Shown here piece after piece: positions 36,852 to 64,000 of a DNA stretch of 64,000 bases. Below the pieces are notes generated by a model that saw nothing but the letters and a program-made list of their open reading frames with translations, searched no databases and had not been told where the DNA came from. How positions within the stretch are numbered: position 1 is the first letter of the stretch; each line of letters begins with the position of its first letter. The stretch lies in NCBI GenBank assembly GCA_964525125.1, contig CAZGGK010000012.1, positions 16,533 through 80,532 on the forward strand, given 5' to 3'. The stretch is from an uncultured Mycobacterium sp. (GTDB taxonomy: Bacteria; Actinomycetota; Actinomycetes; Mycobacteriales; Mycobacteriaceae). The position numbers and the translations under genes were made by a program.

Positions 36852-39737
36852 TCAGGGCGCGGGCTCACCGGCCGGCAGGCCGGCGACCGGTGCCGTCACC
36901 GGGTCGGCGGCGTCTGGGCGCCGTGCGACGACCGGGCGGGTGCGGACCTTCATCGGCCACCAGAACCAGCGCCCCAGCAGCGCGGCGACCGACGGCATCA
37001 GGAACGATCGGACCACCAGCGTGTCGAAGAGCAGACCCAGGCCGATCGTGGTGCCCACCTGGCCCACCATGCGCAAGTCGCTGACCACCATCGAGGCCAT
37101 CGTGAACGCGAACACCAGTCCCGCCGCGGTCACGACCTTGCCGGTGCCGCCCATCGCGCGGATGATCCCGGTCTTCAGCCCGCCGCCGATCTCCTCCTTG
37201 AATCGCGCGACCAGCAGCAGGTTGTAGTCGGAGCCCACCGCCAACAGGATGATCACCGACATGACCAGCACCAGCCAGTGCAACGGGAAACCGAGCAGGT
37301 ACTGCCAGAGCAGAACCGACAACCCGAACGACGCACCCAGGGACGCCACCACGGTTCCGACGATGACCAGCGCCGCGACGAAGCTGCGCGTGATGATCAG
37401 CATGATGACGAAGATGATGCACAGCGATGCGGTGCCGGCGATCAGCAGATCGTAGTCGGCGCCCTCCTGCAGATCCTTGAAGAGCGCGGCGGTGCCGGTC
37501 AGGTAGAGCTTGGCGCCGGCCAGCGGTGTCCCCTTGAGGGAACCCTGGGCGGCCTTCTTTATCGCGCCGATCCGCGCGATCCCCTCGGCGGTGGCCGGAT
37601 AGTCGTCGTGGGTGATGATGAAGCGCGCCGCATGACCGTCGGGCGACAGGAACAGGTCCACGACCCGCTGGAAAGCCGGGTTGTCGAACACCTCGCGCGG
37701 CAGGTAGAACGAGTCGTCGTTGCGCGCTGCGTCGAAGTCCCGGCCCATGGCCGCCGCGTCCCCACTCAGCTCCTCGACCTGCTCGATGATCCCCGACATC
37801 GTGCTGTAGGTGGTCAGCATCAAACCCCGCACCCCCTTGAGGGTGTCGATCTGGGCGGGCAGCAACGCCACCAGTTGCGGCATCACCGAGTCGATGTTGT
37901 CCAGGTCCGGGCCGAGTTCGTCGAGTTTCTCGGTGATCTTGTCCACCCCGTCCGACGCCTCGTAGGTGGATCTCAGCGCCCAGCAGATCGGGATGTCGAA
38001 GCAGTGCGCCTCCCAGTAGAAGTAATTGCGGAGCGGCCTGGCGAAATCGTCGACGTCGGCGATGTTGTCGCGCATCTGCCTGGTGATCTCCACCATTTCC
38101 TTGGTGCGGCCGACCACCCGGCCGGTGCTGTCGGTGAGCTGCCGCATGAGCCCATACGCACGCTCCATCGTCGTGATGGTTTCGGCGATCTCGTCGGCCT
38201 GCACCCGCATGTCGGTGACGCGGTCCTTGACGAACTTCAAGTTCTGTTTCTGGCCGGCGCCCTGCATGCTCAGCAGGAACGGTATCGACGTGTGTTCCAG
38301 GGGGGTGCCCTCGGGCCGGGTCACGCCCTGCACCAGGGCGATCCCCTCGACGGCGAACAGCGCCTTGGCGACCTTGTTCAACACCAGGAAATCAGCGGAG
38401 TTGCGCATGTCGTGATCGGACTCGATCATCAGCACCTCGGGCATCATCCGGGCCTCGGAGAAATGCCGCTGCGCCGCCAGCCACCCGACGTTGGCCGGCG
38501 TGTCCTGCGGTATGAACAGCCGGTCCTTGTAGCTGACCTGGTAACCCGGCAACGCCAGCAGGCCGACCAGTGCGATCGCGCAGGAGGCCAGGAAGATCGG
38601 CGCGGGCCAGCGCACGACGGCGGCGCCGACCCGGCGCCAGCCGCGAACCGACAGCACGCGCTTGGGCTCGAGCAGCCCGAACCGACCGGCCACGGTGAGG
38701 ACCGCCGGAACCAGCGTCAGCGCGACCGCGACCGCGACGAGCATGCCGATCGCGCACGGCGCGCCCATCGTCTGGAAGATCGGCAGCCGGGTGAAACTGA
38801 GGCAGTAGGTCGCTCCGGCGATGGTCAGACCGGAGGCCAGGATCACATGGGCCACCCCGCGGTAGGCGGTGTAGTAGGCCGTCTCGCGATCCTCCCCGGC
38901 CTGCCGCGCCTCGTGGTAGCGGCCGATGAAGAAGATCCCGTAGTCCGTGCCCGCGGCGATCGCCAGCGAGACCAGAATGCTGATCGCAAACGTGGAGAGC
39001 CGGATGATCTCGACATGGCCCAGGAAGGCGACGATGCCGCGGACCGCCGCCAGTTCCACCCCGACCATGGCCAGCAGCAGCACCACGGTGCCGATCGACC
39101 GGTATACCAACAGCAGCATGATGAAGATCACCGCGACCGTCGTCAGCAGGATCTTGACCGTCGCCGCGTCACCGCTGGCAGTCACATCGGCCATCAACGG
39201 TGTCGGGCCGGTGATGTAGGTGGTGACCCCGGCCGGGGAGGGCGTTCGCCGCACGATGTCGCGGATGGCCTCGACGGATTCGTTGGCCAGCGCCTCGCCC
39301 TGGTTTCCGGCGAGATTCAGCTGCACGTAGACGGCCTTGCCGTCCGGGCTCTGAGCCGCCGGCGCGGTCAGCGGATCGCCCCAGAAATCCTGGATGTGCT
39401 GGACGTGGGCGGTATCGGCGGCCAGTTGGTCGATCAGGCCCGCGTAGTAGCGGTGCGCGTCGTCGCCGAGGGGCTGGTCGCCCTCCAGCACGATCACCGC
39501 CACGCTGTCGCTGTTGGACTCCCCGAACACCTCGCCGATACGCGTCATCGCCTGCACCGACGGCGCCTCGGTGGCGCTCAGCGTTACCGCCCGCTCCCTG
39601 GTCACCTGTTCCAGCGCCGGAATAGCGGTGCTGACCAGCACCGTAAGGGCCAGCCAGCCGAGAATCACCGGCACCGCCAGCCGATGCACGGCTCTCGCCA
39701 GGAACATCCGGTCCCCGCCGCTATAGGGGGTGCTCAT
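36852..39737 (-). CDS. mmpL: MmpL (RND) lipid transporter, MmpL4/5 type
   Basis: AAGTDY and VGSDY proton-relay motifs, [23 protein letters not shown]. Confidence 0.95.
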
Positions 39738-40265: not shown

Positions 40266-41753
40266 TCACGCCATCGCGTAGTCCGTCAACGGGAAGCTCT
40301 CCTGCTCCTTGACGGCGCTTCGCACCGACGTCGGCCGGAAAAGCGGCGCTTCCCCGGTGTTGGGGTTGAACCAGTACGAGTTCGAGGTCGCGCAGTTGCC
40401 CAGGCGGAACACCGATTCGTCGAGCAGCTTGTTCATCCGGTCCAGGAAGCGGGCATTGGCGTCTTCGGTGACCTCGAAAGTGCGGGCGCCGCGCCGCTGC
40501 ATCTCGCCGAACAGCCGGTTCATGTGCCGCATCTGGTACTCCACCGTGTTGAACCAGCACAGCCCCACCCAGGCGAACGGGCTGGCCATGTTCAGGAAAT
40601 TCGGGAAGTGCGGCACCGAGATGCCCTGATACGCCTGGAATCCGGCCTCGCGCCACCACTTCCCGAGGTTGCGGCCCTCCCGGCCGATCACCTCGACCGC
40701 CGGCAGGTTGTTCTCCCAGACGTCGTAGCCGGTCGCCAGCACCAGGGTGTCGACGATCCGCTTGCTGCCGTCGCGCGCGACGATGCCGTCGGGCTCGATC
40801 CGCTCGATGCCGCTGGTCTCCAGGTGCACGTGCGGCTTGGCGAACGTCGAGTAGTAGTCGTTCGAGATCGTCGGGCGCTTGCAGCCGAAGTCGAAATCCG
40901 GCTTGAGCTTGCGGGCCAGCTCCCGGTCGCGCACCGACAGCACCCGATGCAGGCTGGACAGCGCCGACATCGTCTTGTTGACCAGCTTGAACCGGTTGTA
41001 GTGCCACATGGTGATGACCATCATCACGCCGGTGACGGTGTCGGTGAGGTGGCGCACCATGCGCTGGGTGAACGGCACCCTGGCGAACAGCCGCTGCACC
41101 ACCGGCGGGAAGACCACGTCGGACTTGGGCGTCACCAGGATCGGCGTGCGCTGGTACACGGTGAGTTCGGCCACTTCTTTGGCCAGTTCGGGGATGACCT
41201 GGATGCCGGTGGAACCGGTTCCGATGACGGCAGCCCGGCGCCCGGCCATCGAGTAGTCGTGGTCCCAGGCCGCGGTGTGGATGCTGCGCCCGGCGAAAGT
41301 GTCGATGCCCGGGATGTCCGGGGTCTTTGGCAGGCACAGGAAGCCGGTGGCGACGATGAGGAACTGCGCGCTGAGCGTCTCGCCACCGGCCAGTGCGACC
41401 CGCCACACCTCGGCGTCCTCGTCCCACCGGGTGCCCTCCACGCTGGTGTTGAACCGCATGTGCCGGCGCACGTCGTACTTGTCGGCCACATGCTCGGCGT
41501 AGCGCTTCAGTTCGCGACCCGGGGCGAACAGCCGCGACCAGTACGGGTTGGGCTCGAACCAGTAGGAGAACGTCGTCGACGGCTGATCGACCGACAGGCC
41601 CGGATAGTCGTTGACGTGCCAGGTCCCGCCGAGGTCGTCCAGCCGGTCGACGATCAGGATCTTTTCGTAGCCCAGGCGCTTGAGCGCGATGGCCGCGCCC
41701 ATACCACCGAAACCCGCCCCCACGATGATGACGTCGAAGTGCTGCTCGTCCAT
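40266..41753 (-). CDS. Flavin-containing type I Baeyer-Villiger monooxygenase
   Basis: GAGFGG, GGTW..N.YPG, fingerprint [22 protein letters not shown]. Confidence 0.88.
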
Positions 41754-41853: not shown

Positions 41854-42690
41854 ATGGTTCGCAGCCCGATCCGGTCGGAGACCCTGGACAAGCTCGGCGT
41901 CAACCTCGTCTACCGGATAGGGTCCACCGCCGTCTTCAAGAAGATCTTCAAGTACTGGTACCCCTACATGACCCGGCGCATGGGCAAGGACGACGTCGTC
42001 TTCCTGAACTGGGGCTACGAGGAGGACCCGCCGCTGGGCATCCCGCTGGACGAGGCCGACGAGCCCAACCGGTACTCGATCCAGCTGTACCACCAGACCG
42101 CGACCCAGGTCGATCTGGCCGGCAAGAAGGTGCTGGAGGTCAGTTGCGGCCACGGCGGCGGTGCCTCGTACCTGACGCGGACGCTGCATCCGGCCTCCTA
42201 CACCGCACTCGACTTCAACTCCGAGGGCGTCGAGTTCTGCAAGAAGCGGCACAACCTGCCCGGCTTGGACTTCGTCCAGGGCGACGCCCAGAACATGCCG
42301 TTCCCCGACGAGTCGTTCGACGCGGTGATCAATGTCGAGGCCTCGCACATCTACCCCGACTTCGACCGCTTCATCTCCGAGGTGGCCCGGGTGCTGCGCC
42401 CCGGTGGGCACTTCCTGCACACCGATTTCCGCAACAGCGAGGGCGTCGCCGAATGGGATGCGCTGGCAAGACCGCCGCTCAAGGTGGTCTCCCAGCGGAT
42501 CATCAGCCAGGAGGTGCTGCGCGGTCTGCGCGAGAACTCACCGCGGTCCAACGAATTGATCAACAGCCACCTGCCGGCGGTGCTGCGCCGCTTCGGCCGG
42601 GAATTCGCGGTGGTGGACGGCTCGTGGTTCTACCACGACCTGGAACGCGGCGAGATCACCTACCGGATCTACCACGCCGTCAAGGACTGA
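41854..42690 (+). CDS. Phthiotriol/phenolphthiotriol-type O-methyltransferase (Rv2952/Rv1523-like)
   Basis: [48 protein letters not shown]. Confidence 0.88.
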
Positions 42691-42724: not shown

Positions 42725-43510
42725 CTAGAGCCCGTGCGTGCCGAGCCAGCCGTGGATGTGTTCGGCGACGGCGGCCCAGCCCGGCTCGACCATCATGTTG
42801 TGGCCCATGTCGGGAAAGAACACCGCCTCGGTGTGGTAGGCACGCGCCGTGGCAAGCACCTCTTTGCGGGTGTGCGCCCCGTCGTCCTCGGCGCCCAGGA
42901 CGAGCACCGGCGCCGTGCCGCGCTGCGGTCGCCGGCGCCCGAGCAGCAGGCAGTCCAGGCCGACCCGCACGCTCTCCCGCTGCAGTCGCGCCGCGTAGGC
43001 CACCACGTCGGACTCGGGGGTGTGCGCGGAGAAGAACCGCTCCCGCGCCAGTTGCGGGGTGTTGACGTAGGGCAGCGAATCACCGCTGACGAGCATCTTG
43101 GCGAAGTGCACCGGATGTTGGCGCAGCCAGCGCAACCCGGATCCGAGGTTGCCCTGCGGCGGCATCGAGGACATCAGGACAGCGGCCGGGGCATCGTGTG
43201 CCCGCAGGTACTGCTGCACGAAGAAGCCGCCCATGGAATGACCGATGACGACCGGTGCGGTGGGCAGACCGCCGGCGACCTCGCTGATGTCGGCCACGTA
43301 GTCGGCGACCGAGCAGTCGCGCAGCGGCTCGGCGGTCGGGCTGTTGCCGTGGCCGCGCAGGCTCAGCGCGAGCGCGCGGTAGCCCCGATCGGCGAAGTAC
43401 CCGAGGAAATGCTCATCCCAGCACCAGGCAGCGTGCCAGGCTCCGTGCACGAAAAGCAGTGGCGCGGAATGGGATTCGGTAACCCTCCCCCGGTCGATCA
43501 CCTCGAGCAC
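42725..43510 (-). CDS. Alpha/beta hydrolase
   Basis: FVHGAWH, GHSMGG, GHNMM. Confidence 0.88.
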   Translation of the reverse strand: MLEVIDRGRVTESHSAPLLFVHGAWHAAWCWDEHFLGYFADRGYRALALSLRGHGNSPTAEPLRDCSVADYVADISEVAGGLPTAPVVIGHSMGGFFVQQYLRAHDAPAAVLMSSMPPQGNLGSGLRWLRQHPVHFAKMLVSGDSLPYVNTPQLARERFFSAHTPESDVVAYAARLQRESVRVGLDCLLLGRRRPQRGTAPVLVLGAEDDGAHTRKEVLATARAYHTEAVFFPDMGHNMMVEPGWAAVAEHIHGWLGTHGL

Positions 43511-43761
43511 GGCACCCCCGGCGGGAAGTCGCCGTGGACCGCTGCACCGGACCGGGTCCCCGACGACAAAAGCCCGGTTCCGTGCTGGCTGGGCAATCTG
43601 GGACTCCTGTCTGCCGCGGCGCGGATTCGGCTGTGCAGCCATCGCAACGTATCACGCACGGGCGGCAGTCCCCGCCGGACACCGGGGTGCGTAAGTTAGC
43701 TTCCACGGCGATCCGCCCGGAGCGCGGATCGCTGCGTCACCACCGCATCGAGGAGCCAGAT

Positions 43762-44604
43762 TTGACGAAGCCCAATCCGGTTGCCCTGGTCACCGGGGCG
43801 ACCAGCGGGATCGGCGAGGCCACCGCCCACCGCCTGCACGACCTGGGGTATGTGGTGTTCGCGGTGGGCCGCGATCCGGCGGCACTGGAGGCACTGCGGT
43901 CGCGGGGGCTGCAGGCCCGCGCCGTGGACGTCAACGACGTGGCCGGGGTGGACCGGCTGACCGAGGAGATCCGCTCGGAGTTCGGCCGGGTCGACGTGCT
44001 CGTCAACAACGCAGGCTTCGGGTTGTCCAGCCCGCTGGAGCAGGTGGCGCTGGGCGATCTGCGGGCGATTTTCGAGACCAACGTGGTCGCGATGCTGCAC
44101 CTGTGCCAGGCGGTGCTACCGATCATGCGGGTCCAGGGTGCGGGCACCATCGTCAACATGGGTAGCACCGCCGGGCGGATGACCACCCCGGGAGCGGGCG
44201 CCTACCACATCACCAAATACGGCGTCGAGGCACTCTCCCATGCCCTGCGCGCCGAGGTGCAGCCATTCGGGGTGCGGGTCGTGGTGATCGAGCCCACCGG
44301 TGTGCGCAACACCAAGTTCATCGCGGGCCGATCCGGGGCCAGCCCGGCCGATGCCGCCGACGACCCGTACCGCGCTTTCAAGTCCCGCTACACCGAACTC
44401 ACCGACAGGCTGGCCGAATCGCGCCTGCTGACCGTGGACGCCGACGCCGTCGCCCGCGTGATCATCCGGGCGGTACGGGCCGGACATCCCAGGACGCGGT
44501 ACGTCGTGGGGGCGTCCGGCCGGGCATCGATGCTCGCCCACTCGTTGCTGCCCGACCGGCTGTGGGACCGCATCCTGATGCGGGGCCTGAGCGGGCGGGG
44601 CTGA
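43762..44604 (+). CDS. SDR family oxidoreductase
   Basis: TGATSGIG, NNAG, YHITK, IEP; TTG start after GAGGAG. Confidence 0.9.
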   Translation: MTKPNPVALVTGATSGIGEATAHRLHDLGYVVFAVGRDPAALEALRSRGLQARAVDVNDVAGVDRLTEEIRSEFGRVDVLVNNAGFGLSSPLEQVALGDLRAIFETNVVAMLHLCQAVLPIMRVQGAGTIVNMGSTAGRMTTPGAGAYHITKYGVEALSHALRAEVQPFGVRVVVIEPTGVRNTKFIAGRSGASPADAADDPYRAFKSRYTELTDRLAESRLLTVDADAVARVIIRAVRAGHPRTRYVVGASGRASMLAHSLLPDRLWDRILMRGLSGRG

Positions 44605-47478: not shown

Positions 47479-47566
47479 ATCCGGACCCACTTCCCACATC
47501 GTTACGTACGGTTTGGGTGAGCTTATCCTGAGAGTCGCCTCGTCGCTAATCCGACGCGGGTTCGGG

Positions 47567-48891: not shown

Positions 48892-49009
48892 GCTGCCCCC
48901 TGCTCCCCTGGCGTTGGCGCGCACGTCCCGCATGAGACTCGACCGGCGATCACCGATTCGAACCCGACGCGTGCGGCGGATTCCCAGACCGCTGCAGCGC
49001 GCGCGGTTG

Positions 49010-50983: not shown

Positions 50984-51814
50984 GTGACCGACAAGATTCG
51001 AGTCGACCTGCACGGCGCCGCCCAGACCATGCTGACCACGCTGTACCTCAAGGCGCTCGACGCCGCCCTGGACCGGCCCATTCTCGCCGACCGGTTCGCC
51101 AGGGCCGCGGTCGAGAAGATCGACTTCGACTTCGACGGCCTGCAGGCAGACGTCAGGTGGGCGCCGCTGGTCACCGTGCGCACCGCCCAGTACGACATCT
51201 GGGCGGGTCAGTTCCTGGCCGTGCATCCGCAGGCCACCGTCATCCATCTCGGGTGCGGTCTGGACAGCCGCGTCTTCCGGCTGGACCCCGGGCCGGACGT
51301 GGCCTGGTACGACGTCGACTATCCGGATGTCATCGCGTTGCGCGAGAAGATCTTCCCCACTCGGCCGGGATATCACCTGATCGCGACGTCGGCGACCGAC
51401 CCGTCCTGGCTGGACCGGATTCCCGCCGGCGGGCCGGTGCTGCTGCTCGCCGAGGGCATCAGCATGTACCTGACCGAGCGGGACGGGGTGGCACTGCTGC
51501 AGCGCGTCGTCGACAGGTTCGGGACCGGCGAACTGCAGATCGACTTCTACAACTGGCTGGGCATCTCCTCCCAGAAGGCGCACCGGCTGCAGCGGCAGTC
51601 CGGTTCGACGCTGCACTGGGCGGTCAACGCGCCCGCCGACATCCTGAACCGGGTTACCGGGGTGCGCCTGCTGGCCGCGGTGACGTTCTTCGACGCGCCC
51701 ACGTTCGGCCGGGTGCCGGCGGGATTCCGCCGCGCCAGCCGCCTGGTGCGCGCGATCGCGCCGGTGCGCCGGATGTTCCAATACCACCGCTACGCCTTCG
51801 GTCCGGTCAGCTGA
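50984..51814 (+). CDS. Class I SAM-dependent O-methyltransferase (LCM/Omt-like)
   Basis: [37 protein letters not shown]. Confidence 0.88.
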
Positions 51815-53066
51815 CGCCGGTCGCGGTGTGCTGCTCGGCGATCCGGCACAGCGTCGAGCGTATCGCCTGCACCGATCGTTCCGGGTCCGGCCCGTGCGAG
51901 TGGTACTCGATGTTCAACTGTCCGGCGTAGATCTGGGTGAAGTAGATGTCGATCCCCGAGCTGACCGTGAAGTACAGCTCGCCGTGGGTGGCGGTGACGT
52001 CGACGCCGGGCGGGGTCCGCATCGGCGGGACCAGGCCGTTGTTGGACAGCAGCACGACGTCGGGCATGCCCGGCGGATTCCCGACGTACTGCGGGCTGAA
52101 GTGCAGCCGCGACTGCGCGATCACGCCGTCGGACAGGTCCTGCTGAAACGTCTCGGCGATGTCGCGGGCCAACTCGACGGCACTGGTCTTCTGGTTGATC
52201 TCGGCGAGGTAGGTGGCCAGGCCGATCGGGTTGGTGCATCCGGTCGCCGACACCGGCGGGGACAGGAAATACCGCAGGTCGACGGTGTAGACGTAGGGCA
52301 CCGGGATGTTCAGCTTGCCGCGCAACTCCCACTCCGCCATCAGCACGGCCGCCGAGAGCACGGCGTGCAGGCTGAGGTCGTGCGCCCTGCCGAATGCGAC
52401 GACGTCGTCCGTCTCGCGTTCGCTCAACCGGCATGATGCCATTGGAACCCGCACCGGTTCGGTGGGCTTCACGTCGGACACCGCACGCCGGCTGGGCGGC
52501 AGGTCATAGGCGAACAGCGCCGGCATGAACCGCTCGATGCCGGAGCGCTGCTGCTTGTGCACACCCCGGTCGGCGAGCACCGCCTCGATCGACTCCGGTG
52601 CGGGCTGGGCGATGACCGCGCCGCTGCGGCCGCCGCCGACCAGGTCGGTGTAGTGCGACAGCATCTCCTCGACCAGGGCGTACATGTGGTGGCCGTCGGC
52701 GACCGCGTGATGGACGTAGAGGATCGGCTGCACCTGCCCGGGGCGAACGACCACCCGGAAGTGCACCAGCGCCTCGTACTGGTTGAAATGCGGCGGCGCG
52801 GGTTCACCGGCCTGATCGTCGAGTTCCACCACCTCGATGCCGGCCGGCAGCAGGTCGTCGGTGACGAACTGGTGCCGCCCGTCGGGCAGCCGCTCGAGGT
52901 GGGCGGTGAGGATCGGGTGCGCTTCCAGCAGCGCGTCGTAGGCGTCCGACAGGGCGTCGATGTCGATCGGACCCGTCACGTGCGCCGCCAGGCCCACGAA
53001 ATTGTGGGTTTCGGCGAGCATCTCCTCGCTGTTGGCCAGTTTGCGGATAACCGAGGTGGGAAACAC
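51807..53066 (-). CDS. papA5: PapA5-like polyketide-associated acyltransferase
   Basis: [11 protein letters not shown]-terminus, HHAVADG catalytic motif, VDLR; TAGTG overlap with the ppsE stop. Confidence 0.88.
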
Positions 53067-56000
53067 TAGGACAACTCCACCAGGGTCATCTCGTCTTCGG
53101 CCGATTCGGCCGACTCCTCCTCCTGGGCCGCGATCGCCTCGGCGACCAGGTCCGTCGCCGCGGTCGCGAATCCCGCCGCCAGCGCTTGCACGACGGCCGG
53201 GTCGGCCCGGCGGCTGTCGTACCACCAGTCGGTGTGCAGCACACCGCCGGCGCGGTACACCCGAAGCTCGACGGCGTGGCCCAGGCCCGGGATCGTTTCG
53301 CGTACCGGCATCGCGGCGTCGGTGTCGAACCGCACCGGGGCGTCCTCGGTGAACACGTCCGGCAGGTCGGGAATCGCACCGGTGTAGGAGAAGTAGACGT
53401 CCGAGGGCCGGACGGCGCCGAGCAGCCGCGCGGTGGGCGCGTACAGATAGCGCAGCAGGCCGTAGCCGATTCCGTAGTGCGGCACCGCGTTCAGCGTGTC
53501 GTGCACCGCGTCCAGCAGTTGCGGCGCGGCACCGGACGAGCAGGTCAGCGACACCGGATAGACGGTGGTGAACCAGCCCAGCGTGCGGCGCAGGTCGACA
53601 TCCGGTTTGAGCACCGAGCGGCCCGGGCCGCCGACGTCGACCGGGAGCACCCCGTCGCCGATGGTGGCGGCGATCGTCCGGCTCAGCGCGGCCAGCAGGA
53701 TCTCGTTGATCGGCAACCGCAGCCGGCGGCGCGCGTCGTCGATCGCGCTGGTCTGCACGGCGGTCAGCGTCGCCGACACCCGCGCGAGGTCCCCGGCGCC
53801 GGGCGGGTCCGCGACGTCGGACCCGATCCGAAGCGCCGGTGACGCCGGCGCCTGCAGCCAGAACTCACGGCTGTCCAGCACCGCGGGGTGGGTGGCCAGT
53901 GCCGCGCAGCGCTGCGACCACTGTCCCCAGGAGGTGGTGGCCGGCTGCAGGACGATGTCCTGGCCGGCCAGTCGCTGACCGAACGCGGTGAAGATGTCGG
54001 TCAGCAGGATGTCCCGCGACACCTCGTCGCCCACCATCGCGTGCACGCTGATCGCCAGGTAGCCCGGTTCGCCGGAACGCCCCCGGACGTAGCCGGCGGT
54101 GAGCACCGGAGCCGACGGGCCCTGTTCGCGGATCTGCTCGCCCAACAGGTGAAGCACCGCGTCGCGCTCCTGCGGACTGCCCGGTGCGACGTCGTCGGGC
54201 AGCGACCAGATGGCCAACCCGGTGAATTCCCGCGGCTGGCCGATCTGCTGTTCCCAGGTGCCGGAACGCTCCGCGACCAGCAGCCGCAGCGCGTCGTGGT
54301 GGTTGGTCAGCGCGGTCAGCACCGCGCGGACATCGTCGTCGCACACATCGGGCCGCAGCCGCAGGATCAGCGGGATCCGCCAGCGCCCGCGCTCCCGCAC
54401 GCCGTGTTCGCAGAAGTAGGCGATGTTCGGCGGCACCGGTGGATGTTCGGTCTCCCCCGGCGTCTGCCGGGCCAGCCCGCCGGCCGCATACCGCGCCGTC
54501 AGGGCTTTGGCGAGCCCGGTCACCGTCGGGTTGTCGTACAGGTCCTGCGGTGTGAGGTCGAGCCCTTCGTGCGAGGCGGCCATCGCGACGCTGATGGCGA
54601 CCAGCGAGTCCCCGCCGATGTCGAAGAAATTCGCGTTGCGGTCGACCGTGCCGACCCCCAGGCACACCGCCCAGATGCGCTGCAGCGTGGCCTGAATCGA
54701 CGAGCCGTCGCCGGTGCTCCCCGCACCGCCGGCGGTGCCGGCGGCCGCTGCGGCCACGCCGGTCGCGCCGGCCCCCGCAACCCAACTGGCGGCGGCGTTG
54801 TGTTCCACCCAATGCCGTTGCCGCTCAAAGGGATAGCCGGGAATTGAGACGAGCCGCGGCGGACGGTCGCCGCGCAGGGGTGCCCAGTCCACGTCGACGC
54901 CCGCCGACCAGAGCTGGCCCAGCCCGAGCAGGAAGGCGTCGCGGTCGCTGCGGTTCTGCGCGTGGTGGCGCATCAGCCGGACCGCCCGGTGGGTGGCCGC
55001 CCACTTCGGGTGCCGCATCGCCGAGCCGGTCAGCGTGCCACCGGGGCCGACCTCGATGAGCACCCGCTGCGGATCGGCCAGCAGGGCGTCGAGTTCGTCG
55101 GCGAACCGGACCGTCGCCCGCACCTGGCGCGCCCAGGTCGAGGCGTTGGTCGCCTCGCTGGGCGCCATCCAGGTCCCGGTGAGGTTCGACAGCAGCGGTA
55201 TCCGCGGCTCGTGCAGCGTCAGCCGGGACAGGTAACCGGTGAACTCCGGGATCACCGAGTCCATCAGCCGGGAGTGGAACGCGTGCGAGGTGCGCACCCG
55301 CCGCGCCGAGATCCCGGCCTGCCCGAGCCGTTCGGTGAAGGCCCGGATGTTCTCCTCGGACCCGGCCACCACGCAGCTGCCCGGGTCGTTGATGGTTGCC
55401 AGGTCGACCTGATAGGAGCCGTCGGAGAGATACTCGGCGACCTGCTCCGGGCTCAGCGCCACCGCGACCATCACCCCGCGCGGTGCCGCGTGCATCAGCC
55501 GGGCCCGCATCGACACCACCTTGATCGCGGTCGGCAGGTCGAAGACACCGGCGATGGTGGCCGCCGCGTACTCACCGATGCTGTGGCCGGCCATCGCGGC
55601 CGGCTGCACGCCGTAGCGCAGAATCGACTGCGCCAGCGCGTATTCCACGGCGAACAGCGCGGGCTGGGTGCGGTCGGTGCGCTCCAGGTTGCGTGCGGTG
55701 CCGTCGAAGATCTCGGAGCGCAGGTCGATACCCAGTTCCGCGTCGAACCCCGCGGTGCAGGCGTCGAAGTGCTCGGCGAACACCGGATCGGATTCGTAGA
55801 GCCCGCGCGCCATGCCGATGTGCTGGGCGCCCTGGCCGGGAAAGAGCAACACCACGCGCTCGGTGCTGCTCACGTTCGGCACGGCGTCGCCGATGAACAC
55901 GTTGTCGTGCTCGGGTGCCGCCAGCACGGCTGCGGCGTCCCGGCGGCCGTCGACCACCGCGGCCATCCGGACCTGCCCGGTGCGCCGGCGGGTCAGGGTG

Positions 56001-57487
56001 TAGGCCACATCGGCCAGGTCGGGCAGGTCGGCCTCGTCGGGGCCGGACAGTTCGGTGGCCAGGTCGGAGCGGGCCTGCTGCAGCGCATCGGCGGTACGCG
56101 CGGACAGCACCAGCACCTGCGGGCCCGGCACCGCCGCGGGCACCGCCGCGGTCTCCGGCCACTCCTCCACCACCACGTGCGCGTTGGTGCCGCCCACCCC
56201 GAACGAGCTGACCCCGGCGCGCCGGATGCCGTCGGACTCCCAGGGGCCGTACTCGCTGCGGATCGCGAACGGGCCGGAGTCCAGGTGCAGTTCCGGGTTC
56301 GGGCTGGTGTAGTGCAAGGTGGCCGGGATCGCCCGGTGCTTGAGGCACAGGATCGTCTTGATCAGGCTGGCGATGCCGGCCGCGGACTCCAGATGGCCAA
56401 TGTTGGACTTGACCGAGCCGACATAGCACGGGCCGGAACGTTGTTCCTCGGAGACGGCGAAGGCCTGGCGCAGGCCGTCGATCTCGATCGGGTCGCCCAG
56501 CGGGGTGCCGGTCCCGTGCGTTTCGACGTAGCCGATGGTGGCGGCGTCGACCTCGGCGACCGCATGCGCCTCGGCGATGACGTCGGCCTGGCCGGCCGCA
56601 TTGGGTGCGGCGTAGGTCATCTTGGTGGCGCCGTCGTTGTTCAGCGCCGACCCCCGGATCACCGCATGGATGCGGTCGCCGTCGTCGACCGCGGCCTCCA
56701 GCGACTTGAGCACCACCACCCCGACACCGCTGCTGAAGATGGTCCCGTCGGCGCGCACGTCGAACGGCCGGCAGTGACCGGTGGCCGACACCATCGAACC
56801 GGGCTCGTGCCAGTACCCGACGCGGTGCGGCACCCGCAGCGAGGCACCGCCGGCCAGCGCCATGTCGCACTCCCCGTTGAGGATGCTCTGGCAGGCCAGG
56901 TGCACCGCCACCAGCGCCGACGAGCAGGCGGTCTGCACCGACAGCGCGGGCCCGCGCAGGTTGAGCTGGTGCGCCACCCGGGTCGCCAGGTAGTCCTTGT
57001 CGTTGCTCAGCGACAGGTTCACCATCTCGAACGAGACACCCTGACCGATGATCAGGTTCGGGTCGTAGTGCGACATCAGGTTGTGCAGCAGGTAGCCGCT
57101 GGTGGTGCTGGTGCCGTACACGCCGACCGCGCCGTCGAGCCCGGCCGGGTCGTAGCCGGCGTCCTCCAGCGCATGCCAGGCCGACTGCAGGAACAGCCGG
57201 TGCTGCGGGTCCAGCGTCCGGGCGGCCAGCGGGGTGAACCCGAAGAAGTCGGCGTCGAATTCGTCGATGCCGGCCAGCAGTCCGGCCCGCCGGACATAGC
57301 CGTGATTCGCCAGCGCCTTGTCGCTGACCCCGGCGGCCCGCAGGTCGTCCTCGGACAGGTCGACGATCGACTCCACGCCGTCGCGCAGGTTGTCCCAGAA
57401 CGCCGAGAGCGTACTGGCGCCGGGAAACCTTCCGGCCATGCCGATGACGGCGATCGCGTTCGGCGGCAGTTCGGTGCTGCTGGTCAC
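53066..57487 (-). CDS. ppsE: Type I PKS, PpsE-like (KS-AT-ACP-condensation)
   Basis: QTACSS, HGTGT, GHSIG, HAFH, GGDSL, C-terminal condensation-like domain (VHAMVGD). Confidence 0.9.
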
Positions 57488-60400
57488 GCTCGGTCTCCTA
57501 CCTTTCGCCGCGAGGCCGCACGTTGCCGCGCGGCCGCGCGCTGCTGGGCCCGGGTCCGGACCCCGCCGCCGCTCTCGGTGTCGTCCGGCCCGCCGAGACC
57601 GAGTTGACGGATGAGATCGGTGGCCAGGTCGGCCAGGGTGGCGCCCTGCAGCAGCAGCGCCACCGGTGGCTCCACCCCGAAGTCACCGCGCACGGTGTTC
57701 CGGATCCGCACGGCCATCAGCGAATCCATGCCCAACTCGGTCAGCGGCTGCGCGCTGTCGATGACGCTTCCCTTCGGGTAGCCCATGATAGCCGTGATCC
57801 GGCCGCCCAGCCGGGCCACGACGACCGCGTGGGCGGCTGCCGGATCCAGTTCGCGCAGCGCGTCGGGGCCGGCCCAGTCGTCGTCGACGTCGAGGTCCAG
57901 TTCCTCGGCCAGCGTCGCGAAGAACCCCAGCTGCCGGATCTCCGGGAAGGCGGCCGCCGCACGGTCCAGCCGCAGCCGGGCCACCCCCACCCGGGTCAGG
58001 TCGCCGGCCAGCACCGCCTCCAGTGCCTCGATGCCCTCGGCGGGGGCGATCGGGTCCAGCGCGCCGAACTTCAGCGCCTGCGCCACCCCGACATCGGACC
58101 ACTGACCCCAGTTGATCGTGATGGCCGGCAGGCCCGCCGCGTGCCGCCAGGCCACCAGGCCGTCCAGCCATGCGCTGGCGGCGGCGTAGGCGGCCTGCCC
58201 GGGCGCCCCCAGCAGCGACGACGTCGAGGAGAACCCGGACCACCAGTCCAGGTCTTTGCCGGCGGTGGCGACGTGCAGTCGCAGCGCGCCGGCCGCCTTG
58301 GGCGCCCAGACCCGTTCCAGGGTCTCCCGGTGCAGGCCGACGACGATCTGGTCGTCGATGACGGCCGCGCCGTGGATGACGCCCCGCAGGGCCAGCCCGG
58401 TCTGTTCGGCGGCGCCGACCAGCCGTTCGGCCACCCCGGGCTCGGAGATGTCACCGCAGACCACTTCGATCGCCGCGCGCTGCTCCAGTTCGGCGATGGC
58501 TGCCCGCTGCTCGTCGGACGGCTCGGAACGGCCGTTGAGGACGATGCGCGCGGCGCCGTGGGCGACCAGCCAGCGCGCCACCACCAGCCCGATGCCGCCC
58601 AGCCCGCCGGTGACGATGTAGGCGCCGTCGGAGCGCACCAGCGGGGCCGGCCCGGCCGCGCCGAGCTTCGCGCGGGACAGCCGCTCGACGAATCGCTGTC
58701 CGCCCCGCCAGGCGATGATGTCGTCGGTGCCGCCGCCGCCCAGTTCGGCGAGCAGCACCGACGGATCCGCCGCTGAATCCAGATCCACCAGCGTGGTGTG
58801 CAGATCCGGGTGTTCGTAGGCCAGCACCCGGACCAGTCCCTTGAGGGCGACGGCGGCCGGATCGCCGGGTTCGCCGGCGAGCACCGACAGTCCGTCGCGG
58901 GTGACCAGCCACAGCTGCGGCGGCTTGCCGTGCCAGCCGCCGACGATCGCTCGCACGGTAGCCGAGACACCCCAGGTCGATTCCAGCCCGCGCCGCACCG
59001 CGTCGCCGGTGTCGGTTCCGTCGAACGAGCCCGGGCGGGCGAAGACGACCACTCCGACCGGTGGAAGTTGCGGATCGGCAGCGGTATTCGCGAATGCCTC
59101 CAGCAGCCCCGGCTCCTGCGTGACGTCCGCGCGGACCACGCGGCGCGTCGGTGCGCCGAGCTGCACGACGAAATCATCGGCCAGCCGGTCGGTTTCGGCG
59201 CCGTCGGTCAACACCAGCCAGCTGCCGTCCGGCGGCACGGCACCGGCGGCGGCGTCCGGGGCGCCGGTGGCCTGCGTCCAGGTGGTGTCGAAGATCTTCT
59301 GGCTCAACGGCAGCGGCACCGTGCGGGCCTGCACCCGCTGCAGGTAGATCCCGCCCAGTTCGGCGGTCGGCGTCCCGGCGTCGTCCATCAGGATGACCCG
59401 GCCCACGATGCCGTCGTCGCCGTGGCTGACCACCTCGGCGCGGCAGCGGGCGCGCCGGCCCACCTCGCCGAAGACCCGCAGGGTCTCCACCGCCACCGGC
59501 AGATAGGTGGCCTCGGCCGATTCGGTCGTCGATTCCTCCGGCAGCGCCGCCGCCAGGCACTGCAGTGCCGCGTCGAGCATCACCGGATGGATCCGGTAGC
59601 CGCGGTGCGCGGTGGCTTCCTCCGGCAGCACGATCTCGGCTTCGGAGAACCCGCCCGGTCTGCGGGTGATCCGGGTCAGCGCGGCGAACGCCTTGCCGTG
59701 ATGCAGGCCGGTGCGGTGCAACGCGAAGTAGAAGTCCGCCGGGGACAGTGCCGTGCCGGCTTCGGTGGCCGCCGGCCGCTCCGGCGGCGGCCCGGCCGGT
59801 GCGGCCTGCACCCGCGCGACCGCGTGCCGGCGCCAGGCGCCGGTTGCCGCGCGGGAATGGATCTCCACCCGGATGTCCCCGGATTCGCCACCGGAGATCA
59901 ACTGCGTCGTCAGCCGGGTCTGCTCGTCGAGCGGCAGCATCTGCTCGACCTCGAGGCGGTGCACCGTTATCGCCGTTGCTGGCAGTCCCAGCGCCTCGCT
60001 GGCCGCGGCCAGTGTGATCTCGGCGTAACCCGTTGCCGGCATGACGATCTGGCCGTGCACCTTGTGATCGGCCAGCCAGGGAACGAGTTCGGTCCCGACG
60101 TCGGCCTGCCAGAGGTGGTCCTGGCTCATCGGAAGTTCCACGTGCGTCCCGAGCAGCGGGTGGGTGCTGGCCGACTGCCGGTTCGCCGCCGAGGCCGCGA
60201 CCCAGTGCCGGACATGCAGCCAGGGCGTCGGCGGCAGGTCGGCGCGCCGAACCTGGCCGCCGGATGGAGCCGGCTCGGCCGACGGTGGCCGGACCGCCGC
60301 CAGGTTGGTGTGGAAGGTCAGGGTCTCCGGGTTGTCCCGGGTGAGGGTGGCCACTACCCGGCCACCGCCGCGGGGCCGGGCGGACGCCAGGTTCTCGCCG

Positions 60401-62904
60401 ATCGCGTGGGTGAGCAGCGGGTGCGGGCTGACCTCGACGAAGGTGGCGTGCTCGCGTGCGGCGGCCGTCACCGCCTGGCTGAACCGCACCGGGTTGCGCA
60501 GGTTGGCCACCCAGTAGTCGGCGTCGAAGCTCGGTGCGCCGGCTCCGCTCTGGTCGACGGTGCCCAGCACCGGGATCTTCGGCGCGCCGGGCGTCAGGCC
60601 GGCCAGCGCGGCACGCAACTCCGGCAGGATCGGATCGACCGTGGGGTGGTGCGAGGCAACGTCGACCTCGACGCGGCGCGCCAATCGGCCCTGGGCGTCC
60701 ACCACCGCCACCACCGCGTCCACCTGGTCGGGCGGTCCGGCGATCACGGTCTGCTGCGGGGCGGCATACACCGCGACGGTGATGCCGGGCCGGTCGGCGA
60801 TCAACTTCTCGACCGCCTCGGCACCCGACTCCAGCAGCGCCATCGCGCCCTGTCCGGACAGCCGGGCCATCAACTTGGACCGGGTGGCGATGACCTTCAG
60901 CCCGTCGGCCGTGCTGAGCGCCCCGGCCACCACCGCGGCGGCCACCTCCCCCATCGAGTGGCCGATCACCGCATCCGGCTCCACCCCGTAGGACCGCCAG
61001 AGCGCGGTCAGCGCCAACTGCATGCCCACCAGCACCGGCTGGATCCGGTCGATGCCGACCACGGTCTCACCGGATTCCAGCACCTGGCGCAGCGAGAAGC
61101 CCACCTGCGCGACGAACGTCGGCTCGAGTTCGGCGACCGCGGCGGCGAAGGCCGGCTCGTCGGCCAGCAGTTGCCGGCCCATGCCGGCCCACTGCGAGCC
61201 CTGCCCGGAATAGAGGAACACCGTGCCCGCCCCGTGCCAGGCGTCGTGCGGTCCGACGACCCCCGGCGCCGGCTGGCCGGTGGCCACCGCCCGCAACCTG
61301 GACACCGCGTCCGCGCGATCGCCGGCACACACCGCGGCCAGCTTGTTGTAGCGGCTGCGATGGCGGTTGACGGTCTCGGCGACCTCGGCCAGGCGCACCC
61401 CGGCGCCGTCGGTCTCCATCCAGTCGGCCAGGGTCGACGCCCACGCCGCGATGCGCTGGTCGCTCTTGCCGGAGAGCACCACCGTGGTCACCGGCGAACC
61501 CGGCCCGGCATCCGGGCCTGCCGCCGGGGCCGCCTCGGGTCCCTGTTCGATCACCACGTGCGCATTCGTCCCGCCCAGGCCGAACGACGACACCACGGCA
61601 CGGCGCGGGCCTTCCGCGATCGGCCAGGGTGTCGGCTCGGTGGGCACGAACAGCCGGGTCGGCGTCGGGTCGATCGCCGGATTCCATTGCGAGAAGTTCC
61701 GATTGGGCGGGATCTGGCCGCGCTGCACGGACAGGGCGGCCTTGATGAACCCGGCGATGCCGGCGGCCGCCTCCAGGTGGCCGATGTTGGTCTTCACCGC
61801 ACCGAGCGCGCAGGGCCCGTTGCCGCGGCCGTAGATGTCCGCCAGCGCCTCGAACTCGATCGGATCGCCCAGCGCGGTGCCGGTGCCGTGCGCCTCGATG
61901 TAGTTCACCGAGTTGGCCGGGACGTCGGCGCTGCGCAGCGCGCGGGCGATGACGTCGACCTGGGCGATGGTGTTCGGCGCGGTCAGCCCGTTGGAGCGGC
62001 CGTCGGAATTGATCGCCGAACCGCGCACCACCGCGAGCACCCGGTCGCCGTCGGCCACCGCGTCGGTGAGCCGCTTGAGCACCACCACACCGGCGCCCTC
62101 GCCCCGCACGAACCCGTCCGCGGCGGAGTCAAAGCTGTTGCACTGGCCGCGCGGCGACAGCATGCCCCACTTGGCCATCGCGATCTGGGTCTCCGGACGC
62201 AGGATCAGGCTGACGCCGCCGGCCAGGGCGAGATCGCTCTCCCGCAGCCGCAGGCTCTGGCAGGCCAGGTGGATGCTGACCAGCGACGACGAGCATGCCG
62301 AGTCCACCGCCACGGCGGGCCCCCGCAGGCCCAGCAGGTAGGCGATCCGCCCGACGGCGACGGCGTGCGCGTTGCCGGTCGCCGAATAGGCATCGATGTT
62401 GTCCGGGTTGGCCGCCGAAATCGTCTGGTACTCCGTGTAATACACGCCCATCATCACCGCGCCCCGGACCCCGGACAACTGGTCGGGCGCGATCCCGGCG
62501 TGCTCCAGCGCCTCGAAGGCCACCTCGAGCATCAGCCGCTGCTGCGGGTCCATCTCGTCGGCTTCGCGCGGGGATATCCCGAAGAAATCGGCGTCGAAAC
62601 CGGCGACGTCGGGCAGGAAACCGCCCCACTTCGAGGACATCCGGCCGGGCGCGAACTGGTCCGGGTCGTAGAACTCGTCGGCGTCCCAGCGGTCGGCGGG
62701 GATCTCGCTGATCCCGTTCCCGGCGTTCTGCAGGAACTTCCAATAGTTCTCCGGGCCGGCCGAACCACCCGGGAAGCGGCAACCGATCCCCACCACGGCC
62801 ACCGGTTCGGCGGCGGCGATCCGCGACGCCTTGCTGAACTGCTCGGTCAGCGCGCTGCGCTGCTCGGCGCTCATCGCCGAAACCCTGCTGAAGATCGTTG
62901 CCAT
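57484..62904 (-). CDS. Type I PKS module KS-AT-DH-KR-ACP (PpsD-like body, PpsB-like N-terminal docking region)
   Basis: DSACSSS, GHSMG/VASH, HPLLG..LADH..MP dehydratase, TGGLGGIG KR, GMDSL; no ER domain. Confidence 0.9.
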   Translation of the reverse strand: MATIFSRVSAMSAEQRSALTEQFSKASRIAAAEPVAVVGIGCRFPGGSAGPENYWKFLQNAGNGISEIPADRWDADEFYDPDQFAPGRMSSKWGGFLPDVAGFDADFFGISPREADEMDPQQRLMLEVAFEALEHAGIAPDQLSGVRGAVMMGVYYTEYQTISAANPDNIDAYSATGNAHAVAVGRIAYLLGLRGPAVAVDSACSSSLVSIHLACQSLRLRESDLALAGGVSLILRPETQIAMAKWGMLSPRGQCNSFDSAADGFVRGEGAGVVVLKRLTDAVADGDRVLAVVRGSAINSDGRSNGLTAPNTIAQVDVIARALRSADVPANSVNYIEAHGTGTALGDPIEFEALADIYGRGNGPCALGAVKTNIGHLEAAAGIAGFIKAALSVQRGQIPPNRNFSQWNPAIDPTPTRLFVPTEPTPWPIAEGPRRAVVSSFGLGGTNAHVVIEQGPEAAPAAGPDAGPGSPVTTVVLSGKSDQRIAAWASTLADWMETDGAGVRLAEVAETVNRHRSRYNKLAAVCAGDRADAVSRLRAVATGQPAPGVVGPHDAWHGAGTVFLYSGQGSQWAGMGRQLLADEPAFAAAVAELEPTFVAQVGFSLRQVLESGETVVGIDRIQPVLVGMQLALTALWRSYGVEPDAVIGHSMGEVAAAVVAGALSTADGLKVIATRSKLMARLSGQGAMALLESGAEAVEKLIADRPGITVAVYAAPQQTVIAGPPDQVDAVVAVVDAQGRLARRVEVDVASHHPTVDPILPELRAALAGLTPGAPKIPVLGTVDQSGAGAPSFDADYWVANLRNPVRFSQAVTAAAREHATFVEVSPHPLLTHAIGENLASARPRGGGRVVATLTRDNPETLTFHTNLAAVRPPSAEPAPSGGQVRRADLPPTPWLHVRHWVAASAANRQSASTHPLLGTHVELPMSQDHLWQADVGTELVPWLADHKVHGQIVMPATGYAEITLAAASEALGLPATAITVHRLEVEQMLPLDEQTRLTTQLISGGESGDIRVEIHSRAATGAWRRHAVARVQAAPAGPPPERPAATEAGTALSPADFYFALHRTGLHHGKAFAALTRITRRPGGFSEAEIVLPEEATAHRGYRIHPVMLDAALQCLAAALPEESTTESAEATYLPVAVETLRVFGEVGRRARCRAEVVSHGDDGIVGRVILMDDAGTPTAELGGIYLQRVQARTVPLPLSQKIFDTTWTQATGAPDAAAGAVPPDGSWLVLTDGAETDRLADDFVVQLGAPTRRVVRADVTQEPGLLEAFANTAADPQLPPVGVVVFARPGSFDGTDTGDAVRRGLESTWGVSATVRAIVGGWHGKPPQLWLVTRDGLSVLAGEPGDPAAVALKGLVRVLAYEHPDLHTTLVDLDSAADPSVLLAELGGGGTDDIIAWRGGQRFVERLSRAKLGAAGPAPLVRSDGAYIVTGGLGGIGLVVARWLVAHGAARIVLNGRSEPSDEQRAAIAELEQRAAIEVVCGDISEPGVAERLVGAAEQTGLALRGVIHGAAVIDDQIVVGLHRETLERVWAPKAAGALRLHVATAGKDLDWWSGFSSTSSLLGAPGQAAYAAASAWLDGLVAWRHAAGLPAITINWGQWSDVGVAQALKFGALDPIAPAEGIEALEAVLAGDLTRVGVARLRLDRAAAAFPEIRQLGFFATLAEELDLDVDDDWAGPDALRELDPAAAHAVVVARLGGRITAIMGYPKGSVIDSAQPLTELGMDSLMAVRIRNTVRGDFGVEPPVALLLQGATLADLATDLIRQLGLGGPDDTESGGGVRTRAQQRAAARQRAASRRKVGDRA

Positions 62905-64000
62905 CAGATACCGCTCTCATTACCTGCCGCCGCGGATTCCACGTTGGCGAACAATTCGTCCAGTACGCCGACCTCCGAGCCGGCCGGCGCCTCGGCGTCG
63001 GCGGGCTCGTCCGGAAGCTGTCGCGGTGCCAGGAATTCCACCAGATGCGCCGCCAGCGCCGAGATGCTGGGGTGATTCCAGAACATCGACGCCGACAACT
63101 CGATGCCCATCAACTGCTGGGTCTCCTTGAGCACCGTCATCGCCATCATCGAGTCGAGTCCCAGTTCCGGGAACGGCTGATCCACATCGACCGCCGACGG
63201 CGCCTTGCGAAGTTCCCGGGCCAGGATGGCCCGGAGCCGCGTCACGAGTTCGCCGAGCCGGTCCTCGGCGGGCAGCTGCGACCAATCCGGCACCGCGGCA
63301 ACGGATTCGTCGGTGACTGCCGACCCGGCTGCTGCTTCGGCAGACTCGCATTCGGCGACCAGCGGTTCGAAGTAGCCGAGTTGGCGGAACTGCGGGGTGG
63401 TGGCGATCGCCCGATCGAGGCGCAGCCGGCCCACTCCCACCCGGGCCAGGTCACCGCCGAGCAGTGCCTCCAGCGCCTCGACACCTTCGCCGGGGCTGAT
63501 CGGATCGAGCACACTCAGTGTCATCGAGCGCCCGATCCCGACATCCGACCACTGGCCCCAGTCGATCGCGGTGGCCGGCAGCCCCGCGCCGCGCCGGAAC
63601 TCCACCAGGGCGTCCAGCCAGGAGTTCGCGGTCGCGTACGCGGCCTGGCCGGGCAGGCCCAGCAGCGCCGCCATCGAGGAGAAGCCGACCCACCAGTCCA
63701 GCTGCCGGCCGGCCGTCGCGGTGTGCAGCCGCAGTGCGCCGACCGCTTTGGCCGCCCACACCCGCTCGAGACTCTCTGGCGTCAACGCCGTCACCAGCCC
63801 CTCGCCGAGCACACCGGCCGCGTGCACCACGCCGCGCAGCGCAAGCCCGGTCTCCTCGGCTGCCGCGACCAGCCGCTCCGCCACCCCGGCCGCGCCGATA
63901 TCACCGCGGACGAAGACGACCTCGGCGCCGGTTTCCAGTTCGGCCATGACGTCGCGCTGGGCCTCCGAGGGCTCGCTGCGGCCGTTGAGCACCAGCCGGG
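62904..64000 (-). CDS. 3' part of a type I PKS (KR-ACP with PpsA-like C-terminal tail); truncated by the window edge
   Basis: HAAGV, GQAAYATAN, GLDSMM, FWNHP, VLDELFANVES tail; TGATG coupling to the next gene. Confidence 0.88.
   Translation of the reverse strand, partial: RLVLNGRSEPSEAQRDVMAELETGAEVVFVRGDIGAAGVAERLVAAAEETGLALRGVVHAAGVLGEGLVTALTPESLERVWAAKAVGALRLHTATAGRQLDWWVGFSSMAALLGLPGQAAYATANSWLDALVEFRRGAGLPATAIDWGQWSDVGIGRSMTLSVLDPISPGEGVEALEALLGGDLARVGVGRLRLDRAIATTPQFRQLGYFEPLVAECESAEAAAGSAVTDESVAAVPDWSQLPAEDRLGELVTRLRAILARELRKAPSAVDVDQPFPELGLDSMMAMTVLKETQQLMGIELSASMFWNHPSISALAAHLVEFLAPRQLPDEPADAEAPAGSEVGVLDELFANVESAAAGNESGI

Follow-up and report, generated by a model that had tools for sequence, protein, structure and literature searches.

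An enoylreductase-less relative of the Pps polyketide synthase line in an uncultured Mycobacterium and its possible forked route to a non-PDIM wax

The analysed window comprises 64,000 nucleotides of an uncultured Mycobacterium sp. genome (G000, GCA_964525125.1), namely positions 16533–80532 of contig C12 (CAZGGK010000012.1), and ends on a polyketide synthase (PKS) operon related to the ppsA–ppsE genes of the phthiocerol dimycocerosate (PDIM) line. The operon lies on the minus strand and comprises, within the window, the C-terminal part of a PKS gene called g3 (62904..64000; ketoreductase, KR, acyl carrier protein, ACP, and a PpsA-type tail), a complete PKS gene, g4 (57484..62904), an orthologue of ppsE (53066..57487), and a papA5-type acyltransferase gene (51807..53066). 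The genes are joined, as a first-pass annotation of this DNA had pointed out, by overlapping stop and start codons: TGATG at 62904 (g3/g4), GTGA at 57484–57487 (g4/ppsE), and TAGTG at 53066 (ppsE/papA5, the latter starting with GTG at 53066). Modules are described by their front (docking segment and ketosynthase, KS), body, and back (ACP and tail), each matched to PpsA–PpsD of M. ostraviense (G401), whose genes were assigned by gene order and domain content; M. gastri (G402) served as a second canonical reference. The comparison draws on 57 genomes (58 regions in all), which were selected so as to offer long contigs and to span several identity bands, and counts over these regions are not frequencies. 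Two kinds of related cluster recur below, type II, which has drrABC, and type III, which lacks it.

The g4 product has the architecture KS-AT-DH-KR-ACP (AT, acyltransferase; DH, dehydratase), with no enoylreductase (ER) family match in a Pfam domain search, and the PpsE orthologue, 63% identical to canonical PpsE, that of KS-AT-ACP-C, with an AT of the HAFH type. Both architectures had been recognized in the first-pass annotation, as had the joining in g4 of a PpsB-type front to PpsD-type domains and tail. The g4 front is closer to PpsB than to PpsD in its docking segment (61% versus 21% identity) and KS (76% versus 71%), while the body and back are of PpsD type (AT 72%, versus 59% for PpsB; DH 56%; KR 69%; ACP 66%; tail 61%, versus 16% for PpsB). 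In the KS tree, all nine g4-type KS form a clade of their own (support 99/95), sister to the PpsB KS (98/97); a recent ppsB–ppsD fusion was rejected, as the g4-type KS stands beside the PpsB clade and not inside it. Since a B/D module precedes ppsE in 40 of the 54 regions with ppsE, it is an old and common module, not a local fusion. The contraction from PDIM suggested earlier is not borne out by this widespread lineage with its own KS clade; the accompanying surmise that similar reduced loci occur in other environmental mycobacteria holds. The papA5 product shows a PapA_C match and an intact HxxxDG motif, and its score of 617 is below the NCBIfam PapA5 cut-offs (716 for NF006790). No drrABC genes lie between ppsE and papA5, the best drrA match in the genome being 37% identical.

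Segment identities make g3 a C/D/A mosaic, with the ACP closest to PpsA (52%), the KR and DH to PpsD (62% and 52%), and the front, reached through another contig, C92, to PpsC (docking 64%, KS 73%). Its likeness to PpsA, noted in the first-pass annotation, is confined to the ACP and tail, and g3 was rejected as ppsA by its D-like KR and DH and its C-like docking segment and KS. A normal PpsC was likewise rejected, g3 being devoid of an ER and having a D-like DH-KR and an A-type back. Thus, of the alternative that the annotation had named, a normal ppsC preceded by ppsA and ppsB, two further upstream PKS genes are found, but not the ER-bearing ppsC.

C12 ends at 82294 (window equivalent 65762), inside the AT of g3 and 1.8 kb beyond the window, and g3 continues across a KS-AT repeat to C92. 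The last 55 nucleotides of C12 are the first 55 of C92, and the other end of C92 matches the end of a third contig, C65, over 1526 nucleotides (97%). C65 carries tesA, a FadD26-like fatty acyl-AMP ligase (FAAL) gene, and a KS, and C92 a DH-KR-ACP half, a whole ACP-KS-AT-KR-ACP gene (g2), and then the same KS again. In public contigs of three DNA runs, the read depth at the shared KS is about twice that of its surroundings, rising from 28 to 50 in X1, from 110 to ca. 220 in X3, and from 74 to 150–188 in X5 (X1 and X3 possibly derive from the source sample, X5 from another study). A 1957-nucleotide contig at depth 50, with flanks at 28–32, runs off C92 through 1051 nucleotides of an AT missing from the assembly, and C12 is at single depth up to the repeat. 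The contig end is a collapsed KS-AT repeat, shared by g3 and a further PKS gene, g1. The order tesA–FAAL–g1–g2–g3–g4–ppsE–papA5 is contiguous in 15 of the 58 regions (G136, G187, G132, G034, G321, G308, G260, G126, G029, G107, G245, G396, G398, G030, and G184), with G136, G187, G132, G034, and G308 being single-contig genomes. In M. kumamotonensis, a single contig contains both g2 and papA5, with g2 lying 16.5 kb upstream, and four drafts (G280, G318, G332, and G145) break in the same gene, g2 being on a separate contig in all three tested. Because of the contig overlaps, the doubled read depth, and the 15 contiguous relatives, the same five-PKS order is likely in this genome as the simplest path, tesA and the FAAL gene, on C65, being linked to C12 through that inferred path. 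It was owing to the assembly break that the locus had been taken for a contraction with three PKS genes; C92 and C65 complete a cluster of five. In one single-contig genome (G315, C1), g2 lies 0.63 Mb from g3–g4–ppsE (ca. 4.216 Mb and ca. 4.852 Mb) on the opposite strand, a split due to an inversion or a misassembly at the g1/g3 repeat.

Of the two upstream genes, g2 is an A/B/B mosaic with its own N-terminal loading ACP and no docking front, and g1 a C/A/A mosaic, with a PpsC-type docking front, a PpsA-type body and ACP/tail, and no loading ACP. Catalytic motifs are intact in the KS (Cys-His-His), AT (Ser), KR (Tyr), and ACP (Ser) domains. No ER was found in the C65, C92, and C12 pieces and no module of the cluster bears one, which agrees with the earlier statement that the ER module, like drrABC, is missing from its usual position. 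The KS of g1 and g3 pair by genome in the KS tree (seven of seven genomes) and the first 2.5 kb of the two genes are 87–100% identical in six of six genomes, which marks their KS-AT part as homogenised by gene conversion and the repeat as biological. In eight of eight relatives aligned (a set without this genome's g1 and g3) the g3 DH has an internal deletion of ca. 40 residues, with the catalytic His or Asp altered in some; in this genome the Pfam match of the g3 DH covers positions 52–160 of the 166-position profile, compared with 3–162 for the g4 DH. The g3 DH is thus probably dead. In this genome as in several relatives, the PpsA-type DH of g1 has kept both its His and its Asp (PpsA of M. 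ostraviense has Tyr in place of His), and g1 may for this reason be active in dehydration.

The ATs fall into three classes by signature: VAPH (PpsA–PpsC), VDVASH (PpsD, Mas, and g4), and NMEVASH (every g2-type module, and g1 and g3 of the closest relatives). VAPH is borne by the solved PpsA and PpsC ATs, and VASH by Mas, as by g4. PpsA–PpsE take three malonyl and two methylmalonyl units according to PMC3089613 (section 20), with which the assignment of VAPH to malonyl and VDVASH to methylmalonyl is consistent. The g4 AT, having the signature of PpsD and Mas, fits methylmalonyl use. No VAPH AT was found among the ATs read in type II and type III clusters, those of this genome being NMEVASH in g2 and VDVASH in g4. 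In a FastTree phylogeny the NMEVASH ATs form a separate clade (95), while the VAPH ATs nest among the VASH ones. The idea that all modules use methylmalonyl, first suggested by the VASH motif, was weakened, the g2-type ATs being a third class.

A papA5 match is present in 183 of the 400 genomes of the genus. In the 54 regions with ppsE, the KS preceding it is B-type in 40, as mentioned above, D-type in 11, and A-type in three; an ER occurs in none of the 40 regions with the B-type KS, some of these stretches being incomplete, and in all 11 with the D-type one, and drrA follows ppsE in 20 of the 40 B-type regions. The KS clades match PpsA, B/D, C, and E, with the corresponding ACP/tail partners, as in a Pps-type modular PKS, and the locus is a genuine variant of the Pps line that is both old and widespread. 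Throughout the 58 regions the back of a module is paired with a particular KS: the A-back with the B-KS (48), the B-back with the C-KS (40), the C-back with the D-KS (13), and the D-back with the E-KS (51), the A-back otherwise standing before a self-loading A-front gene (34) or at the cluster end (3). Among 80 loci from an independent search, the junction in front of the gene preceding ppsE was visible in 57, being A-back/B-dock in 38, C-back/D-dock in 19, and mixed in none. The ACP/tail and the downstream KS thus appear to travel as a unit, with the modules mosaic and the pairings fixed. The A-back/B-front junction is found, among others, in seven Mycolicibacter species as well as in Mycolicibacterium palauense, chubuense, and chlorophenolicum, and the C-back/D-front junction in the kansasii group and in further species such as M. 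leprae, M. szulgai, and M. triplex.

With a probability of about 0.6, we interpret the cluster as a five-PKS, ER-less relative of the Pps line, forked as g2–(g1 or g3)–g4–PpsE and producing a shorter methyl-branched hydroxy-ketone that is esterified by PapA5 to a non-PDIM wax. A non-colinear route of four steps is proposed on account of the back-to-KS pairings, by which g1, having a docking front, no loading ACP, and no partner in g2, would be unable to start the line. The fork is backed by natural arrangements: in G406 and G407 the genes are colinear (g2-type, g1-type, g4-type, E), and in G106 g1, located upstream of g2, is the sole PpsC-type front available to g2. The FAAL would load a long fatty acyl chain on the N-terminal ACP of g2, which would extend it, reduce it to the hydroxyl, and pass it by its PpsB-type ACP/tail to the PpsC-type front of g3 or g1. 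With its DH probably dead, g3 would leave a second hydroxyl, while g1, with a PpsA-type KR, would yield either the isomeric diol or, by dehydrating, a mono-ol that bears one more alkene. The PpsA-type backs of both would dock on the PpsB-type front of g4, which would add methylmalonyl and dehydrate, and PpsE would add the last unit and release a methyl or ethyl ketone. The four extensions are one fewer than in PDIM, the fully reducing step of PpsC being the one predicted to be missing. The g3 route would lead to a 4-methyl-3-keto-7,9-diol, where phthiodiolone is a 9,11-diol; should the NMEVASH-type ATs use methylmalonyl, as many as two further methyls would be present. PapA5 would likely esterify the ketone-alcohol. 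The g3-route product would keep its C4=C5 alkene if no reductase encoded elsewhere acts on it; such an alkene is reportedly left when the trans-reductase Rv2953 is lost. The one Rv2953-like homologue (69%) lies away from the locus, on contig C2, where its neighbours are valS and an rpf-like gene, which makes an unsaturated product plausible; the C2 position is presumably that of the paralogue Rv2449c, and the gene was not accepted as an Rv2953 orthologue by this position. The product is likely a shorter, methyl-branched, possibly unsaturated diol ester. The first-pass prediction that it is not PDIM fits the predicted line, devoid of an ER and VAPH ATs, whereas its two skipped cycles are reduced to one and its loss of hydroxyls is not upheld, two hydroxyl-forming steps being probably kept.

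Candidate tailoring and transport genes are situated within 15 kb downstream of papA5; their linkage in relatives was counted in 20-kb stretches. A short-chain dehydrogenase (SDR) gene (43534..44604, plus strand), a candidate ketone reductase, is linked at at least 58% identity in four of eight relatives. An alpha/beta hydrolase gene (42725..43642, minus), present in a single copy in the genome, and a flavin monooxygenase gene (40266..41753, minus) with the fingerprint FxGxxxHxxxW, which we take to be a Baeyer-Villiger monooxygenase motif, are each linked in eight of eight type II/III relatives and in none of six other clusters. A member of the phthiotriol/phenolphthiotriol dimycocerosate methyltransferase family (41902..42690, plus; 455 bits in NF045823, cut-off 300) is linked in seven of the eight; an overlapping open reading frame at 41838–42728 was discarded as a shadow frame. 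An MmpL transporter gene (36852..39737, minus) is linked at at least 70% in six of six type III and neither of two type II clusters. Within 30 kb of papA5, the monooxygenase (at least 68% identical) accompanies 68 of 104 papA5 matches of at least 54% identity and one of 45 below it, that one being a B/D-type cluster; these counts cover 149 of the 195 non-self papA5 matches and the top 99 non-self monooxygenase matches (at least 803 bits), with a cut-off that was picked after the list had been viewed and that follows how closely a genome is related to the query. Homologues of the monooxygenase, equal or weaker in score, are found in 261 of the 400 genomes. The ketone end would be tailored by the linked monooxygenase, hydrolase, SDR, and methyltransferase, and the product exported by MmpL; oxygen insertion at the alpha-methyl ketone followed by hydrolysis and O-methylation would be a reasonable course of events. 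No drrABC, mmpL7, or lppX linked to the locus was found with the queries used in the assembly of 109 contigs (99.95% complete by markers).

Several points, to which the choice of the monooxygenase cut-off belongs, weigh against the proposed forked line. The contig graph also permits a C65–repeat–C12 path in which C92 forms a loop, as it does a mixed population, and the g1/g3 AT of this genome is absent from the assembly, its type being taken from relatives and from a contig that matches it in part. The pairings have exceptions, the B-back preceding the E-KS in three regions and the A-KS in one, and the C-back being paired with the D-KS in two regions without ppsE; moreover, the genomes compared are related by kinship and not independent. 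Grouping of the g4 N-terminus with PpsD, named in the first-pass annotation as contrary to its reading, is absent from the best KS tree, but a tree forcing it was not rejected (p-AU 0.12). The NMEVASH ATs share a Gln with the malonyl class. The g3 DH of this genome retains its His and Asp and could dehydrate, and hence either g1 or g3 could do so. In this assembly no Mas was found with the queries used, no Rv2951c-like gene (best matches 35–38%), and no locus-linked Rv2953-like gene; of the FAAL, Mas, and Rv2953-like reductase that the annotation had named for the extended locus, the FAAL is present on C65 and the reductase is represented by the unlinked C2 homologue.

Among the alternatives, a single four-step line g2–g3–g4–PpsE, with g1 a dispensable or structural relic held similar to g3 by gene conversion alone, or with g3 as the relic, survives best, though it seems unlikely. 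G406 and G407 manage with one second module, g1 is frameshifted within its KR in the single-contig genome G136, and its DH is deleted in G126; however, g1 and g3 are both present in 15 regions, and the unconverted DH-KR-ACP half of g1 keeps its KR and ACP motifs and 63–68% identity to PpsA. A colinear five-step line g1–g2–g3–g4–PpsE, giving a backbone as long as phthiocerol and more oxidised or branched, has still lower odds. The presence of g1, g2, and g3 in one operon with g4 and ppsE, the FAAL gene directly before g1 in 15 regions, and the retention of g1 over wide distances would suit it, but a loading ACP is found in g2, which lacks a docking front, and not in g1, which has one; an A-back is never found directly before a C-KS, nor paired with a docking-less gene in canonical lines, and G406 and G407 place the g1-type gene after g2. 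Synthesis of ordinary PDIM or phthiodiolone dimycocerosate from the locus with the help of unlinked genes is improbable. The papA5, tesA, FAAL, ppsE, and phthiotriol-type methyltransferase genes are all there, and unlinked Mas/Pks5-like PKS genes (56–68%), one or more per genome, occur in five relatives, but no ER-bearing PpsC, VAPH AT, Mas, or drrABC was found in the assembly, and related rapid growers are regarded as non-producers in PMC3089613, section 20. The three-gene A–(B/D)–E line skipping two cycles, put forward in the first-pass annotation, can hardly apply to this genome: the B/D module and the PpsA-type upstream tail are real, and A-front modules are predicted to feed the B/D module directly in such three-step routes elsewhere (G146, G348, G060, G016, and type II clusters), but in the present cluster the front of the upstream gene is of PpsC type, C92 and C65 contribute two more PKS genes, and a C65–C12 join alone would have no loading module.

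Compared with the PDIM line (PpsA–PpsE, FadD26, TesA, PapA5, DrrABC, and Mas), the locus has the same tesA–FAAL–five PKS–papA5 order, the same four pairings of ACP/tail with KS, orthologues of PpsE and PapA5, and a phthiotriol-type methyltransferase gene nearby. It differs in that all four extension genes are mosaic (C/A/A, A/B/B, C/D/A, and B/D/D), whereas the PDIM modules are unmixed, and in having two second modules and no ER or VAPH ATs; instead of drrABC, a linked Mas, an Rv2951c-like gene, or a linked Rv2953-like gene, there are a linked monooxygenase, hydrolase, and MmpL. With the type II pps-like clusters of rapid growers (e.g., M. chubuense, G405; PMC3089613 records genes of this kind for M. 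gilvum and M. vanbaalenii) it shares the g2-type and B/D modules, ppsE, papA5, the linked monooxygenase and hydrolase, and the lack of an ER. Type II clusters, unlike this locus, have two FAALs, a true ACP-loaded PpsA, a KS-AT-KR-DH-ACP third gene, and drrABC, and their line is predicted to fork at the loading step, with three- or four-step routes, here at step two. In all type II regions read, the third gene (e.g., L104:3-2063 of G366) has this order, with a PpsA-type DH placed after a PpsB-type KR by Pfam.

Wax-ester mycolates of mycobacteria arise by Baeyer-Villiger oxidation of an alpha-methyl ketone, and the predicted PpsE product is also an alpha-methyl ketone, with a monooxygenase and hydrolase linked; the substrate is different. 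In M. gilvum and M. vanbaalenii, papA5 is present and mas absent, from which the lack of PDIM was concluded (PMC3089613), and the accessible part of that paper describes no module mosaics or product. Smooth M. vaccae has an estolide-like saturated polyester of unknown origin, according to PMC8657684. A link of the present clusters to this polyester is a conjecture and a lead only, and a saturated product would need a further reductase. The full chain of suppositions, in which a forked, non-colinear line exists in environmental mycobacteria, its two second modules interchangeable and kept similar by gene conversion, the PDIM line descends from this ER-less, methyl-rich form, and a multi-ester tailored by Baeyer-Villiger oxidation is the "saturated polyester" of smooth colonies of the M. 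vaccae group, is unlikely.

PDIM is usually seen as a pathogen lipid, while most clusters read here are not PDIM lines and suggest that mycobacteria of soil and water commonly have surface waxes of a class not yet described. They also point to a natural library of Pps lines, from two to five steps long and assembled from fixed docking pairs, and to a testable route by which the PDIM line may have evolved; a fork at one module, if true, would allow two lipids to be made from one operon by simple means. DNA of this organism is present in wastewater, aquatic, and seawater metagenomes. Contigs of two RNA libraries (X14 and X18) span some of the operon, with a depth of 0–10, but neighbouring genes as well; such contigs cannot show transcription, and a reading of them as expression was set aside. 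No account of this cluster architecture or its lipid was found in the searchable literature, most subscription journals lying outside the search; reviews in such journals mention pps-like genes in rapid growers.

Other arrangements were seen among the regions read. Two-gene lines, with a loading ACP-KS-AT-KR-ACP gene leading straight to PpsE, occur in G259, G340, and G002 (L123–L124, L137–L140), together with drrABC, papA5, and an adjacent Mas-like gene, and are predicted to give short mono-ol ketone esters. G255, G208, G239, and G054 (L121–L132) have a four-gene line (A/B fusion–PpsC–PpsD–PpsE) for which a mono-ol phthiocerol-like product is predicted; Mas lies close by, and the stretches read showed no FAAL. 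In the canonical-like line of M. szulgai (G404, L147–L149) the AT classes of PpsC and PpsD are swapped; the canonical-like G046 has an ER in the second module, and G242 a B-front ER module. No PpsE-type KS was detected before papA5 in the pps-like clusters of G368, G211 (L209–L212), G279, and G331 and in the second cluster of G029. Several regions of metagenome-assembled genomes contain frameshifts, possibly sequencing errors. In the present genome, contig C10 carries at ca. 24–32 kb a fusion PKS of 2600 residues (FAAL-ACP-KS-AT-DH-KR-ACP). In the window, an LCM-family methyltransferase gene (50984–51814, plus strand) directly follows papA5, and a flavodoxin-like open reading frame with no Pfam match (50247–50936, minus) also lies after it. 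Three tandem alanine-rich, signal-peptide-like genes (44618–48933, minus), of no Pfam family (two tested), the third apparently frameshifted (47917–48933 and 47567–48421), have homologues downstream of papA5 in five of six type III relatives.

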